Origin: a virus | Lineage: Duplodnaviria; Heunggongvirae; Uroviricota; Caudoviricetes | DNA: 4,691 bases | IMG/VR virus record: IMGVR_UViG_2693429748_000020 | Strand: one strand, 5' to 3' | Shown: piece after piece, positions 439 to 4,691 of the stretch | How positions within the stretch are numbered: the stretch's first letter is position 1 | Layout of the letters: the number at the start of each line of letters is the position of its first letter | The notes under the pieces: generated by a model | The model's input: the letters and a program-made list of their open reading frames with translations, nothing else | Database searches by the model: none | Told to the model about the DNA's origin: nothing | Made by a program: the position numbers and the translations under genes

Positions 439-858
439 TTATTCCGGTGGGGGATTATCTTTAATCCTGCCTCTCAAATATTTTTCTACATACTCATCGA
501 TTTCTTTTAGCCGGACTTCAAATAGCTCAATCATTCGTTGTTGTTCTGAGCCCGGTAGCTGGTTAAACAACTCAAGAAGTTTTCGTTGGGATTCATTTAA
601 CCACAATTCAGAAGATTCCTGTTCTCCAAAGAGGAGCTCAGGAGGAGATATGCCAAGTGCCTTTCCCAATACGACAGCGTCATGTACTCCAACATTTCTG
701 CTGCCCGCCTCATAGTTACCTATACGCGATTGCGTCCATCCGCAGATTTCAGCAAGTTTTCCTTGAGATAAACCAAGCTTCTGCCTGCGCTCTTTAAGAC
801 GCATTGCAATTTTGTCATTGAGCCTACTAGCGGCAATTTTTTCGTTTTCTTTTTCCAT
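439..858 (-). CDS. Phage repressor A: XRE-family HTH, DicA-like architecture without an S24 peptidase domain (139 aa)
   Basis: ORF with RBS AAGGA 5 nt before the ATG. HTH segment QKLGLSQGKLAEICGWTQSRIGNYEAG. C-terminal motif LLELFNQLPGSEQ parallels LLQLFDALPESEQ in the DicA-like repressor at 2895-3302. Divergent from a Cro-like gene and followed by a terminator. Confidence 0.85.
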   Translation of the reverse strand: MEKENEKIAASRLNDKIAMRLKERRQKLGLSQGKLAEICGWTQSRIGNYEAGSRNVGVHDAVVLGKALGISPPELLFGEQESSELWLNESQRKLLELFNQLPGSEQQRMIELFEVRLKEIDEYVEKYLRGRIKDNPPPE

Positions 859-1197: not shown

Positions 1198-1463
1198 AAA
1201 TCAGGCATGAGCACATCGAATCAGTGTTGTTAGCCCTGGCAGCCGAAAAAGGGCAGGCGTGGGTCGCTAACGCAATTACTGAAGAATATCTGCGCCAGGG
1301 GGGCGGCGAATTGCCCCTTGTACCAGGCAAGGACTGGAACAATCAGCAGAATATCTATCACCGTTGGTTGAAAGGTGAAACGAAAGCGCAAAGGGAAAAA
1401 ATTCAGAAACTGATCCCTGCGGTTCTGGCAATTCTTCCGCGCGAGCTGCGTCACCGACTCTGA
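1194..1463 (+). pseudogene. ydaT: YdaT-like (CII-analog) gene, copy A, 3'-truncated at the IS junction
   Basis: The first 88 codons are ~98% identical in nucleotides to the intact 140-codon copy at 3590-4012. Identity ends at 1462; from 1463 the sequence is the IS orfB interior, and the TGA at 1461-1463 is created by the junction. Confidence 0.7.
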
Positions 1464-2122
1464 TTTTTCAGCGTTCCCCAGAAGCTTTCCATCGGAGCGT
1501 TGTCGTAACAGTTACCTTTACGCGACATTGATGTTTTCAGACCAGACTGCTCCTGTATGACCCGGTAATCGTATGCGCAGTACTGTGAACCTCGATCAGA
1601 GTGGTGGATTAGCCCGGCAGGTGGGCGCTGGCTCCTGAGCGCCATAAACAGGGCTTTACCTGTCAGCTCTTTTGTCATGCGCTCTCCCATGGCGTAGCCG
1701 ACAATTTCGCACGTATAAACATCTTTGATGCCAGCGAGGTACAACCATCCCTCCTGTGTGGCAACATACGTCAGGTCCGCCACCCAGACCTGATTTGGTG
1801 CTGTAGGAGCGAACGTCTGGTTCAGCAGATTTGGCGCAACTGGCAGATTGTGGTTCGAGTTCGTAGTCGCTCTGAACTTGCGTTTCTGCTTACAGCGTAG
1901 CCTTAGCTCCTTACGAAGACGTGCCAGTCGGTCACGACCAACGATGATGCCATTCTCTGCCAGCTCCGTCTGGAGCCGCCGGGTTCCATATGTTTCGCGA
2001 GTGCGGATATGTGCCACCTTAATCTCCAGTTTTAGCCGCTCATCACTTTGTTTTCTGTCTGAGGGTTCATGCTGTACCCAGTTGTAATAACCGCTCCTGG
2101 ATACACCAAATACCTGACACAT
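1451..2122 (-). CDS. IS3-family transposase OrfB (DDE integrase-like catalytic domain), C-terminally truncated
   Basis: DDE-region motifs are present: WVADLTYV, HHSDRGSQY and CYDNAPMESFWGTLKN. The last codons (QSR-stop, 1451-1462) are read from flanking prophage DNA. The frame stays open upstream to the slippery site at ~2209, consistent with an OrfAB fusion. Confidence 0.8.
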   Translation of the reverse strand: MCQVFGVSRSGYYNWVQHEPSDRKQSDERLKLEIKVAHIRTRETYGTRRLQTELAENGIIVGRDRLARLRKELRLRCKQKRKFRATTNSNHNLPVAPNLLNQTFAPTAPNQVWVADLTYVATQEGWLYLAGIKDVYTCEIVGYAMGERMTKELTGKALFMALRSQRPPAGLIHHSDRGSQYCAYDYRVIQEQSGLKTSMSRKGNCYDNAPMESFWGTLKNQSR

Positions 2123-2157: not shown

Positions 2158-2460
2158 TTAACGCGTATTTTTCAGCGACTCCTGTGCAAAATACGCTGTT
2201 GCTTTTTTTAATATATCTCGCTCAAGGCGAGCTTCATTTAACGCCTTACGCAGTTGCAGAATTTCAGATTCCAGTTCAGCCACCGTGCGGGAACCAGGAG
2301 TACCGAGCCCTTTTCTGGCGGCGGTAACCCATTGTCCTAAAGTGCCTTCAGGAAGAGATAATCGGGAAGCGCCTTCACTGATCGAAAGTTGATTTTCAAG
2401 AACCGTTCTGACAGCTTCGGCTTTGAACTCTTTAGAGTAACGTTGGGTTTTTCTGCTCAT
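2158..2460 (-). CDS. IS3-family OrfA (HTH plus leucine-zipper transposase subunit, 100 aa)
   Basis: Protein MSRKTQRYSKEFKAEAVRTVLENQLSISEGASRLSLPEGTLGQWV...LESEILQLRKALNEARLERDILKKATAYFA shows the typical IS3-family OrfA HTH and heptad leucine repeat. Confidence 0.9.
   Translation of the reverse strand: MSRKTQRYSKEFKAEAVRTVLENQLSISEGASRLSLPEGTLGQWVTAARKGLGTPGSRTVAELESEILQLRKALNEARLERDILKKATAYFAQESLKNTR
2203..2209 (-). other. Putative programmed -1 ribosomal frameshift site (A AAA AAA G) linking orfA to orfB
   Basis: A run of seven A on the minus strand lies in the orfA codons TTA-AAA-AAA-GCA. A -1 shift here reads into the orfB frame (..KKSNSVFCTGVAEKYALIEQWRQQFPIEAMCQVFGVS..). This is the standard IS3-family arrangement. 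Confidence 0.5.
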
Positions 2461-2894: not shown

Positions 2895-3302
2895 TTATTT
2901 GTTTGCGCTTCTTTTGCGAGCTTTGAGTAGTTCTTCAAAAAGTTTGTTGAAATTTTCAACTCGAGCACGCATCTCTGACAACAGGGCCTTTTGCTCTGAC
3001 TCAGGCAGTGCGTCGAACAGTTGAAGTAACTCTTTTTGATCTTCTGTCAGAATGGCTGGCTGATTATCCGGGATCGGTTCGCCTGGTTGTTTATCTTCAT
3101 CCCCAAAAAGAAGCCAAGTCGGTGAGCACTGAAGCGCTTGGCTCAGTGCGAATAATCTTTTCCCCGCCGGCTGTGTTTCATCTCTTTCCCATTGAGAAAT
3201 TGTTACGTGAGCCACTTTGACCAGCTTACCTAATGCGGCCTGAGACAGTTTTAATTTTTTACGCCTATGTAAGAGGCGAGCACCGAAGGTTTCGTTTTTC
3301 AT
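2895..3302 (-). CDS. dicA: DicA-like prophage repressor (XRE-HTH, 135 aa, no S24 peptidase domain)
   Basis: Strong recalled similarity to E. coli Qin DicA across the C-terminal two-thirds (LFALS..LQCSPTWLLFGDEDKQP...LLQLFDALPESEQ...EMRARVENFNKLFEELLKARKR). The N-terminal HTH is diverged. Divergent from a DicC-like gene. Confidence 0.9.
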   Translation of the reverse strand: MKNETFGARLLHRRKKLKLSQAALGKLVKVAHVTISQWERDETQPAGKRLFALSQALQCSPTWLLFGDEDKQPGEPIPDNQPAILTEDQKELLQLFDALPESEQKALLSEMRARVENFNKLFEELLKARKRSANK

Positions 3303-3368
3303 ATTAGGGAATTCTAATTTTTCTTGACTTAGGTTTCTCTACGATCTAGTTTCCTTAGGAAAATCTAA
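3303..3368. promoter_or_regulatory. OR-B: three evenly spaced operator-like sites (TTAG-N6-CTAA) between dicA-like and dicC-like
   Basis: ATTAGggaattCTAAT at 3303-3318; TTAGgtttctCTAc at 3329-3342 (one mismatch); TCCTTAGgaaaatCTAAGGA at 3352-3371 (perfect 7-6-7, core 3355-3368). Centre-to-centre spacing is 25-26 bp, as for lambdoid OR1-OR3. Confidence 0.5.
3324..3352 (+). promoter_or_regulatory. Candidate dicC-like (Cro) promoter (-35 TTGACT, 17-bp spacer, weak -10 TAGTTT)
   Basis: TTGACT at 3324-3329 and TAGTTT at 3347-3352, overlapped by the middle and right operator-like sites. RBS AAGGAG sits 7 nt before the ATG at 3379. Confidence 0.35.
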
Positions 3369-3378
3369 GGAGCTCGAT

Positions 3379-3606
3379 ATGTTGAAAATTGATGCTATAG
3401 CGTTTTTTGGCAGCAAAACAAAGCTTGCCAATGCCGCAGGAGTTAGGCTGGCAAGCATTGCTGCATGGGGGGAACTGGTTCCTGAAGGTCGCGCGATGCG
3501 CCTGCAAGAGGCATCTGGCGGGGAACTTCAGTACGACCCCAAAGTTTATGACGAATATCGTAAGGCAAAACGACCTTGGAAGGTGATTCATGAAAATCAG
3601 GCATGA
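3379..3606 (+). CDS. dicC: DicC-like Cro-type regulator (75 aa)
   Basis: Strong RBS. Divergent from the DicA-like repressor. Product has an HTH-like segment (SKTKLANAAGVRLASIAAW). Resemblance to E. coli DicC is from recall. The 3' end overlaps the ydaT-like start by 17 nt. Confidence 0.75.
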   Translation: MLKIDAIAFFGSKTKLANAAGVRLASIAAWGELVPEGRAMRLQEASGGELQYDPKVYDEYRKAKRPWKVIHENQA

Positions 3607-4012
3607 GCACATCGAATCAGTGTTGTTAGCCCTGGCAGCCGAAAAAGGGCAGGCGTGGGTCGCTAACGCAATTACTGAAGAATATCTGCGGCAGGGGGGC
3701 GGCGAATTGTCTCTGGTACCAGGCAAGGACTGGAACAATCAGCAGAATATCTATCACCGTTGGTTGAAAGGTGAAACGAAAGCGCAAAGGGAAAAAATTC
3801 AGAAACTGATCCCTGCGGTTCTGGCAATTCTTCCGCGCGAGCTGCGTCACCGACTCTGCATCTTCGATACCCTGGAACGCCGTGCATTACTGGCGGCGCA
3901 GGAAGCGTTGAGTACGGCAATTGATGCGCATGATGATGCTGTCCAGGCCGTTTACCGGAAAGCACATTTCAGCGGTGGTGGGTCGCCCGGCGATTCTGTC
4001 GTAGTGCATTGA
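3590..4012 (+). CDS. ydaT: YdaT-like protein (CII functional analog of Rac/CP-933P-type prophages), intact copy, 140 aa
   Basis: 140-codon ORF with RBS GGAAGGTGA, immediately downstream of the cro-like gene. Length and position match YdaT (recalled). Its first 88 codons are duplicated at 1194-1462. Confidence 0.75.
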   Translation: MKIRHEHIESVLLALAAEKGQAWVANAITEEYLRQGGGELSLVPGKDWNNQQNIYHRWLKGETKAQREKIQKLIPAVLAILPRELRHRLCIFDTLERRALLAAQEALSTAIDAHDDAVQAVYRKAHFSGGGSPGDSVVVH

Positions 4013-4056
4013 TTGAAATTAATCGTGCCGGATTGTTTTGTTCGGTATCAGTTAAA

Positions 4057-4077
4057 TGTAACGCTGCGAGCGTTACA
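4057..4077. repeat. Palindrome 1 of 3: tGTAACGCT-gcg-AGCGTTACa (perfect 9-3-9), 13 bp upstream of the replication gene start
   Basis: Perfect dyad read directly from the sequence. It abuts the RBS AGGTGA (4078-4083) of the gene starting at 4090. Confidence 0.6.
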
Positions 4078-4089
4078 AGGTGAAAACAA

Positions 4090-4431
4090 ATGGCTTCAAA
4101 CTGGATAAAGCTCGAGGTTATTACGCCGGATAAGCCGGAAATATTCAGGCTTGCTGAGATTCTGAATATTGATCCAGATGCCGCATTAGGGAAGGTTATT
4201 CGCTTCTGGGCATGGGCGGATCAACAAATGATAGACGGTAATGCAGATTGTAACGCTCGCGGCGTTACAAAAAGTGCAATAGATCGCATCACTTTTATGT
4301 CTGGTTTTGCTGATGCGTTAATTCAGGTTGGATGGCTGGTCGAAAATGACGGTGGGCTTTCTCTACCTAACTTTGAACGTCATAACGGAAAAAGCTCTAA
4401 AAAAAACGGGCGGTTACAAACGAGCGAGTAA
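4090..4431 (+). CDS. Replication initiator, N-terminal domain (phage replisome-organizer-like); frame ends prematurely at 4431
   Basis: RBS AGGTGA 7 nt upstream. The N-terminus MASNWIKLEVITPDKPEIFRLAEIL...FWAWADQQMIDG resembles the N-terminal domain of phage replisome organizer / O-like proteins (recalled). The gene position after the CII analog fits a lambdoid layout. Confidence 0.65.
   Translation: MASNWIKLEVITPDKPEIFRLAEILNIDPDAALGKVIRFWAWADQQMIDGNADCNARGVTKSAIDRITFMSGFADALIQVGWLVENDGGLSLPNFERHNGKSSKKNGRLQTSE
4249..4269. repeat. Palindrome 2 of 3: tGTAACGCT-cgc-gGCGTTACa (one inner mismatch), inside the replication gene
   Basis: Same 8-bp arms as 4057-4077 and 4459-4477. Lies in the coding sequence (codons D-C-N-A-R-G-V-T-K). 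Confidence 0.55.
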
Positions 4432-4458
4432 CAAAAATACGCGAACTGAAACGAAAAG

Positions 4459-4477
4459 GTAACGCTGCCAGCGTTAC
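4459..4477. repeat. Palindrome 3 of 3: GTAACGCT-gcc-AGCGTTAC (perfect 8-3-8), with an extra half-site AGCGTTAC at 4493-4500
   Basis: Read directly. The lone half-site repeats the right arm 23 bp downstream. The site lies just 3' of the 4431 stop, in the only frame that stays open. Confidence 0.55.
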
Positions 4478-4502
4478 ACAAACGGATCAAAAAGCGTTAC
4501 CA

Positions 4503-4538
4503 GAGGAAGAGGAAGAGGAAGAGGAAGAGGAAGAGGAA
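4503..4538 (+). repeat. (GAGGAA)6 perfect tandem hexanucleotide repeat encoding a 12-residue poly-Glu tract
   Basis: Six perfect GAGGAA units read directly from the sequence. They are in frame with the open linker frame of the replication gene. Confidence 0.9.
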
Positions 4539-4691
4539 GATCTAAATACTGATCTCCCCCTCGCCAAAAACGAGCGTCTAAAAAATTCGAGCCGGAGGCT
4601 ATTGAGCTGCCCGATTGGTTGCCGGAAACACTCTGGCATGAGTGGGTCCGGTTCAGACAGGCATTGCGAAAACCGATTCGAACGGAGCAGG

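Follow-up and report, generated by a model that had tools for sequence, protein, structure and literature searches.

Three 19-bp palindromes and a lone half-site, lying at and inside a phage replication gene and leading into a purine repeat, raise the question of what such sites are for: are they iterons of a replication origin, operators that regulate the gene, or by-products of the RNA or protein that the DNA encodes? We addressed this in the window, i.e. the whole 4,691-nucleotide stretch of IMG/VR virus record IMGVR_UViG_2693429748_000020 (Caudoviricetes), and in loci homologous to it. The sites are real, are under nucleotide-level selection, co-vary with the initiator subtype and are tied to the initiator gene in every context examined. 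Judging from sequence comparison, it is quite probable that the dyads are iteron-type initiator-binding sites, which together with the homopurine tract would form a replication origin inside the initiator ORF.

A disrupted initiator gene in a Rac-like prophage

The window comes from a lambdoid prophage that is Rac-like and of the E. coli/Shigella type, and the best complete E. coli genome matches positions 3590–4691 at 97.6%. From position 2895 the gene order is a cI-like repressor gene (2895–3302, minus strand), a P22-Cro-like gene (3379–3606, plus strand), the CII-like ydaT (3590–4012, plus strand; Pfam YdaT_toxin, E = 5e-11, and the annotation of homologous loci) and a replication initiator gene in the Rac-like 'ydaU' position (4090–4691, plus strand), which continues past the window end. 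The location of ydaT upstream of the initiator identifies this region as the early-right operon of a lambdoid, Rac-like prophage.

The window also contains two tandem immunity cassettes, at 439–858 (minus)/955–1197 (plus) and 2895–3302 (minus)/3379–3606 (plus), whose cI-like and cro-like genes differ from one another. Each cassette is preceded by a 77-nt repeat (96%; 85–161 and 2644–2720) and is followed by the start of ydaT, the latter as a 282-nt repeat that is 98% identical between its two copies (1188–1469 and 3584–3865). This double cassette has the appearance of a Rac-like region that has undergone recombination or duplication and carries two different immunities. An IS3-family insertion sequence on the minus strand (1451–2460), comprising orfA (2158–2460, minus strand; HTH_Tnp_1) and orfB (1451–2122, minus strand; rve integrase core), interrupts the first ydaT copy at ~1463.

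In the initiator, a winged-helix N-domain is followed by a basic helix, a linker and a DnaT-like C-domain. Intact homologs are 262–266 aa long and are followed by ydaV, encoding a DnaC-like loader. PHROG 2509 ('replication initiation protein') matched an intact homolog over its full length (E = 3e-91) and PHROG 678 ('O-like') covered only residues 99–240, while a Pfam search of the intact 266-aa homolog matched no family. The C-terminal residues 174–266 (~90 residues) matched the DnaT C-domain (PDB 2ru8, E = 1e-4), and Foldseek returned no significant structural match. Using window residues 1–105 as the query, the N-domain family amounted to 6051 cluster representatives at E ≤ 1e-3 and 3468 at E ≤ 1e-10, and the alignment showed that the conserved N-domain motif NF(E/D)RHNGK...R is present in the window protein.

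The reading frame of the window copy is broken twice, which the original prediction had missed. A run of eight A (4399–4406, plus strand), six in intact homologs, causes a +2 frameshift with an ORF stop at 4431, and a 10-bp deletion after 4554 also breaks the frame. On this reading of its frame, the initiator copy in the window is a pseudogene.

Three dyads, half-sites and a homopurine tract

A pattern search of the window for GTAACGCTNNNAGCGTTAC returned 3 matches against a chance expectation of 0.01, and 3 matches were found in 0/200 shuffles. The exact core GTAACG/CGTTAC occurs seven times in 4030–4560 and once in the remaining 4160 bp. A chance origin of the sites was ruled out by the pattern expectation, the shuffles and this clustering of the core.

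All three palindromes and the lone half-site of the original prediction were recovered, although the arms are not all identical. Site 1 is a perfect dyad, GTAACGCT-GCG-AGCGTTAC, at 4058–4076 in the intergenic gap between ydaT and the initiator gene (0 mismatches). It had been placed over the ribosome-binding site; instead it stops at 4076 and abuts the Shine-Dalgarno-like AAGGTG (4077–4082), which is followed by the ATG at 4090. Site 2, GTAACGCT-CGC-GGCGTTAC at 4250–4268, carries one mismatch (G at 4261) and encodes C-NARGVT in the loop between two helices of the winged-helix N-domain (residues 49–60). The 21-bp coordinates first given to sites 1 and 2 included one extra flanking base pair on each side. 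Site 3, again a perfect dyad, GTAACGCT-GCC-AGCGTTAC, lies at 4459–4477 (0 mismatches) and encodes G-NAASVT in the inter-domain linker. These three full dyads are 192 and 209 bp apart.

Additional half-sites accompany the dyads. A degenerate direct half-site, GTAATGCA (4238–4245, plus strand), lies 12 bp upstream of site 2, and the matching half-site in phage 666R9 is GTAACG. Another degenerate direct half-site, with the core GAAACG (4448–4453, plus strand), lies 11 bp upstream of site 3. A further degenerate half-site, GCGGTTAC (4410–4417, minus strand), is weak and may be due to chance. Downstream of site 3 is the trailing half-site AGCGTTACC (4493–4501, minus strand), which contains the lone right arm AGCGTTAC at 4493–4500 and encodes (K)ALP with TTA as the Leu codon. 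As had been predicted, a hexamer tract follows this half-site directly: (AGAGGA)6.5 on the coding (plus) strand at 4502–4540, with 100% matches.

The number of hexamer copies is 6.5 in the window, 5.5 in DEC5E and ~2 in Shigella flexneri SFBU1023 and E. coli ECMA0423, and the tract is imperfect in phage 666R9. Such differences among close relatives show that the lengths of the acidic linker and of the tract drift by slippage.

The predicted location of sites 2 and 3 in the regions coding for the N-domain and the linker agreed with the AlphaFold model of a 262-aa homolog with 98% identity. In this model pLDDT is <50 at residues 53–57, inside the site-2 peptide (54–60), and at residues 120–159, which include the site-3 peptide. 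The site-encoded peptides thus fall wholly or partly in regions of low pLDDT, suggesting that the DNA sites lie mostly where the protein tolerates sequence change.

The site arrangement is conserved across phyla

Homologous loci were collected from viral contigs, from one genome per species (70 loci) and from phage records. After removal of near-duplicates 60 loci remained, with protein identities of 31–94% and G+C contents of 0.44–0.68, covering Enterobacterales, Pseudomonadales, Burkholderiales, Xanthomonadales, Planctomycetota, Verrucomicrobiota, Ignavibacteriae, Acidobacteriota and others.

At the site-2 position (~+149 to +161), 49/60 homologs carried a dyad built from their own type of half-site, and at the site-3 position (~+336 to +413) 50/58 did. 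An unbiased search for any perfect 6-N7-6 palindrome recovered the same sites. The check on conservation and spacing that had been proposed with the original prediction therefore found dyads at the same two places in the gene, 189–264 bp apart. The ~200-bp spacing had been a worry in comparison to the clustered iterons of lambda; this spacing turned out to be conserved, and the real lambda-like cluster is the one around site 3. Spacings of 189–264 bp do not correspond to a constant number of helical turns, so no claim of phasing between sites 2 and 3 is made.

The surroundings of the site-3 dyad were also conserved. Zero to three direct half-sites precede it at a phasing of 11–12 bp, and 52 inter-core distances of 11 or 12 bp were counted. 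After this second dyad comes the trailing half-site GCGTTACC and, immediately, a homopurine repeat: most phyla have (GAGAA)3-6 and enterobacteria have (GAGGAA)n. Under a strict criterion, a purine tract followed the half-site in 33–37 of 58 loci (~60%). The window carries the whole family arrangement, i.e. a dyad at codons ~50–56, a dyad after the basic helix, and the trailing half-site with its homopurine repeat. Upstream dyads like site 1 were confined to Enterobacterales (9 loci) and a single Stenotrophomonas locus (L069); some of them have a further direct half-site 11–12 bp upstream. In a Verrucomicrobiota subgroup and a few other loci, the sites were diverged or missing.

Across the genomes of phages 666R9 and TL-2011b, dyads occurred at the initiator gene only. 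Xanthomonas phage CP2 (L090) carries two extra arrays (5976–6017 and 34142–34184) far from its initiator gene, each made of a dyad plus two direct half-sites at 11–12 bp, with no adjacent purine tract. One of these arrays lies in an intergenic gap and the other overlaps the start of an opposite-strand gene. Being wholly or largely non-coding, they indicate that the motif works outside coding sequence, and may serve as secondary origins, copy-control sinks or regulatory sites. The initiator gene turned up in only three plasmid records, two of which were inspected for gene context and resemble phage genomes; the plasmid records thus provide no minimal-replicon evidence.

Selection acts on the DNA of the sites

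Codon use was compared at alignment columns with a conserved amino acid, using 9 columns within the sites and 53 control columns. Normalised codon entropy averaged 0.21 in the site columns and 0.89 (0.64–1.0) in the controls, with no overlap between the two sets (Mann-Whitney, P = 1e-6). The Asn codon was AAC in 47/47 and 40/40 cases in the two dyads (100%, at G+C contents of 0.44–0.68). The site-3 Val codon was GTT in 38/38, and GTT made up 88–100% of codons across the Val positions of the sites. For the Leu of ALP, TTA was used in 37/38 homologs (97%) compared with 66/663 other Leu codons in the same genes. Arg codons within the tract were AGA/AGG in 66 cases versus CGN in 5, the corresponding numbers elsewhere being 101 and 578 (Fisher test, P = 3e-42). 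This freezing of codons persisted in genomes with >60% G+C. Moreover, the repeat AGAGAAGAGAAG is read in two frames, as PEKRR or as PREEKRR, the choice being set by whether one additional T follows the half-site.

That synonymous positions within the sites are nearly frozen demonstrates selection on the DNA, rather than on the peptide. Given that site 1 lies outside coding sequence, and the CP2 arrays wholly or largely so, the conserved peptides are a result of the DNA signal and not its cause.

Half-site variants point to the initiator as the likely binder

Half-sites other than GTAACG occurred in a minority of loci: GTCACG in four, GTGACG in one, and GTCCGC in phage epsilon15 and in locus L081. 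In these variant loci, every dyad present and the trailing half-site change together. Across 99 dyads, position 3/17 was A·T in 90 and C·G in 7, always in both arms.

The initiator gene was the sole constant neighbour of the sites, the flanking genes varying by lineage. Loci of the Pseudomonas group included both GTAACG and GTCACG types, and phages of the closely related enterobacteria E. coli and Salmonella included GTAACG and GTCCGC types. Such differences among phages of related hosts argue against a host factor as the binder. A further pointer is K-12 Rac-type YdaU, which combines the shared C-domain with another N-domain and has other repeats in its linker. The comparison thus makes it likely that the initiator itself binds the sites, in line with the original prediction of candidate origin iterons bound by the initiator.

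The N-domain encoded by one locus (L075) shares 74% identity with that of a GTCAC-type protein, yet the sites of this locus are GTAAC-type, and its basic helix (RALTAKRV) is like that of the GTAAC group. Among residues not encoded by the sites themselves, only T109 and V113 in the basic helix and T47 in the N-domain tracked the site type. This locus, together with T109 and V113, suggests the basic helix as the candidate element that reads the sites, although the tracking pattern could partly arise from phylogenetic confounding or recombination.

In the initiator gene of epsilon15 (L086), two direct and two inverted copies of the half-site GTCCGC/GCGGAC occur twice, at 1553–1600 and 1833–1900. 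The final copy is joined directly to CCAGAGAAGAGAAGAGAAGAGAAGA, so that this gene follows the family grammar with another word.

Alternative explanations for the sites

The sites could be autoregulatory operators only, through which the initiator or another repressor throttles the replication gene, with the origin located elsewhere. Site 1 lies immediately upstream of the ribosome-binding site, in some enterobacterial loci it is flanked by additional half-sites that extend to the start codon, and a bound protein could block RNA polymerase coming from upstream. However, no promoter-like site was predicted in 3300–4691, and the upstream site is absent from most lineages while the two intragenic dyads are found in ~80–85% of homologs. 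An operator also leaves unexplained the fusion of a half-site to a homopurine repeat and the 11–12 bp half-site arrays of the linker. We therefore regard operators alone as unlikely. The autoregulation originally predicted from the palindrome's place next to the gene finds little support beyond that position, with no promoter-like site predicted nearby and an upstream site limited to certain lineages. An operator role could nonetheless coexist with origin function, and site 1 may add roadblock-type autoregulation in enterobacterial phages. A related possibility is that the sites are bound by some other protein, either a host factor or a phage regulator such as YdaT/CII or Cro. Further DNA-binding proteins are indeed encoded nearby in the window, but only the initiator gene always accompanies the sites, and the site type varies within a host group and tracks initiator residues, making another binder very unlikely.

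Two further explanations place the function in the transcript or in the protein. The palindromes might act as RNA hairpins in the mRNA, affecting its stability, processing or translation, and each dyad can fold into a hairpin of 8–9 bp with −7.6 to −9.4 kcal/mol and z scores of −4.5 to −5.5 (calculated as single-stranded DNA). The site-3 hairpin on the minus strand also fits a terminator-like pattern. Yet what is kept is the sequence rather than the pairing: positions 1–6 are nearly invariant across phyla, whilst the inner pairs are often unpaired (25/99 at position 8/12 and 26/99 at 7/13). Lone half-sites and direct half-site arrays cannot pair at all, and the CP2 arrays are intergenic, one of them over the start of an opposite-strand gene. 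An Rfam search of 3900–4691 gave no covariance-model match at E ≤ 1. Hairpins are accordingly an extremely improbable explanation. At 4459–4487 on the minus strand, the site-3 hairpin is followed by CTTTTCGTTT, a simple intrinsic-terminator pattern that is probably incidental since its T-rich tail is not conserved in homologs. As for the protein, the repeats might encode functional peptide motifs (NAxSVT, ALPEEE), with the DNA palindrome as a by-product, and GNAxSVT and ALP(R)EE are conserved in protein alignments. Against this stand the frozen synonymous codons, the non-coding location of site 1 and the CP2 arrays, the reading of the purine repeat in two frames, and the AlphaFold model, which places the encoded residues wholly or partly in a low-confidence loop or linker. 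Peptide-level conservation was ruled out by the codon test, and we give this explanation next to no credence.

A proposed origin inside the initiator gene

An origin formed by the dyads and the homopurine tract is favoured over an operator alone by the lambda-like layout, the fusion of the linker cluster to the tract, the restriction of dyads to the initiator gene in phages 666R9 and TL-2011b, the lack of a predicted promoter and the lack of the upstream site in most lineages. The core origin would be the site-3 cluster, i.e. the half-sites at 11–12 bp, the dyad at 4459–4477, the trailing half-site at 4493–4501 and the tract at 4502–4540. Two sites would be auxiliary, namely site 2 (~210 bp upstream) and, where enterobacterial phages have it, site 1 (~400 bp upstream); looping could bring them together with the core in a single nucleoprotein complex. 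In the mechanism that we infer, the initiator would contact the sites with its winged-helix N-domain and the basic helix after it, and would cause distortion or opening of the DNA at the purine tract, a candidate unwinding or loading element. Recruitment of the host helicase would follow, via the DnaT-like C-domain and the DnaC-like loader whose gene adjoins the initiator gene in intact homologs, and the complex would fire replication.

The tract in the window is homopurine with 50% G+C, and hence is not the usual AT-rich unwinding element; (GAGAA)n is relatively AT-rich in high-GC relatives. Strand asymmetry is the conserved property of the tract, and opening through an R-loop or triplex is conceivable.

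Because the initiator gene is a pseudogene here, the local origin is likely a relic. The prophage copy is decayed, and the element is probably what remains of an origin that once functioned; the cis sites have survived the loss of the gene and, though intact, are probably inactive unless a related prophage supplies the initiator.

More tentatively, and with somewhat more doubt than confidence, a broader picture can be drawn. A very large initiator family (~6000 clusters at 50% identity, with no Pfam entry) may have its origin hard-wired into its own ORF, with GTAACG kept across phyla and dictating the NAxSVT and ALP peptides. Specificity would have been re-programmed a few times, through concerted changes in the sites and in basic-helix residues. 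(GAGAA)n would stand in place of an AT-rich element, with a purine-rich transcript that could form an RNA-DNA hybrid of unusual stability, so that transcription of the initiator gene might help opening through an R-loop or triplex.

A literature search (oriJ, ydaU, the motif, epsilon15 iterons) returned no description of the sites, older oriJ and epsilon15 papers lying outside its coverage, and no binding, unwinding or replication assay for the initiator family was found by it. If the proposed origin is correct, it would supply a sequence-level rule to locate origins in thousands of temperate phages and prophages. This rule would serve replication modules annotated only as 'hypothetical' or 'primosomal protein I', including those of epsilon15-like, phiV10/TL-2011b-like and Xanthomonas CP2-like phages. 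It would also mean that a binding site constrains the sequence of its own binding protein, with codon freezing measurable across phyla. The variants GTAACG, GTCACG, GTGACG and GTCCGC, together with the two candidate specificity residues, would then be a system for studying initiator-origin co-evolution and the avoidance of cross-talk. Finally, the replacement of an AT-rich element by a homopurine repeat poses a testable question about duplex opening.

Comparison with lambda, Rac and plasmid origins

In lambda, the origin lies midway along gene O and is built from 19-bp inverted-repeat iterons, with an unwinding tract alongside (PMC7466680). The layout described here is similar, with the proposed origin inside the initiator gene at the linker-coding region, 19-bp inverted repeats and a compositionally odd tract after them. 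The early-right order of cro, a cII-like gene, the initiator and a helicase loader is also shared. However, O has no sequence-family link to the window initiator, which has no Pfam match and a DnaT-like C-domain. Whilst lambda has four tightly clustered iterons, the window has three full dyads ~200 bp apart, and loci of the family have two or three, together with half-sites at 11–12 bp. In place of lambda's AT-rich tract, the window family joins a half-site directly to a homopurine repeat, (GAGAA)n or (GAGGAA)n. Among lambda-type features, a linker dyad within the initiator ORF was thus found in the window, and clustering of the dyads, an AT-rich tract and homology to O were not.

The Rac prophage is reported to hold an active origin, oriJ (PMC3945230), and a paper on an oriJ plasmid (Potrykus 2000) is cited in PMC11014345; a fine-scale map of oriJ was not found in the searchable literature. 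The YdaU protein of Rac in E. coli K-12 resembles the window initiator in prophage type, gene position and the DnaT-like C-domain (81% identity over residues 143–266), and repeats are again present in the linker-coding region. It differs in its N-domain, which is DUF1376 (PF07120, 2.6e-26), whereas the window-type protein has no Pfam match. The K-12-type loci (L008–L013) have no GTAACGCT/GTAACG sites and instead carry linker repeats of (A)GATGTTCAAACA at ~33 bp spacing. In one of these loci (L008, 1370–1476), the linker region of the DUF1376-type ydaU contains four or five copies of (A)GATGTTCAAACA and an inverted copy. These repeats may be the iterons of oriJ, the classical Rac origin. By this comparison, the window element appears as a different specificity module in the same slot as K-12 YdaU.

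In the iteron origins of theta plasmids, a winged-helix Rep protein binds repeated sites next to an unwinding element, and sites near the initiator's own gene can mediate its autoregulation. Plasmid iterons are usually direct repeats of 17–22 bp within a non-coding origin that has DnaA boxes and AT-rich 13-mers. The window family differs from these in having dyads and 6-bp half-sites inside coding sequence.
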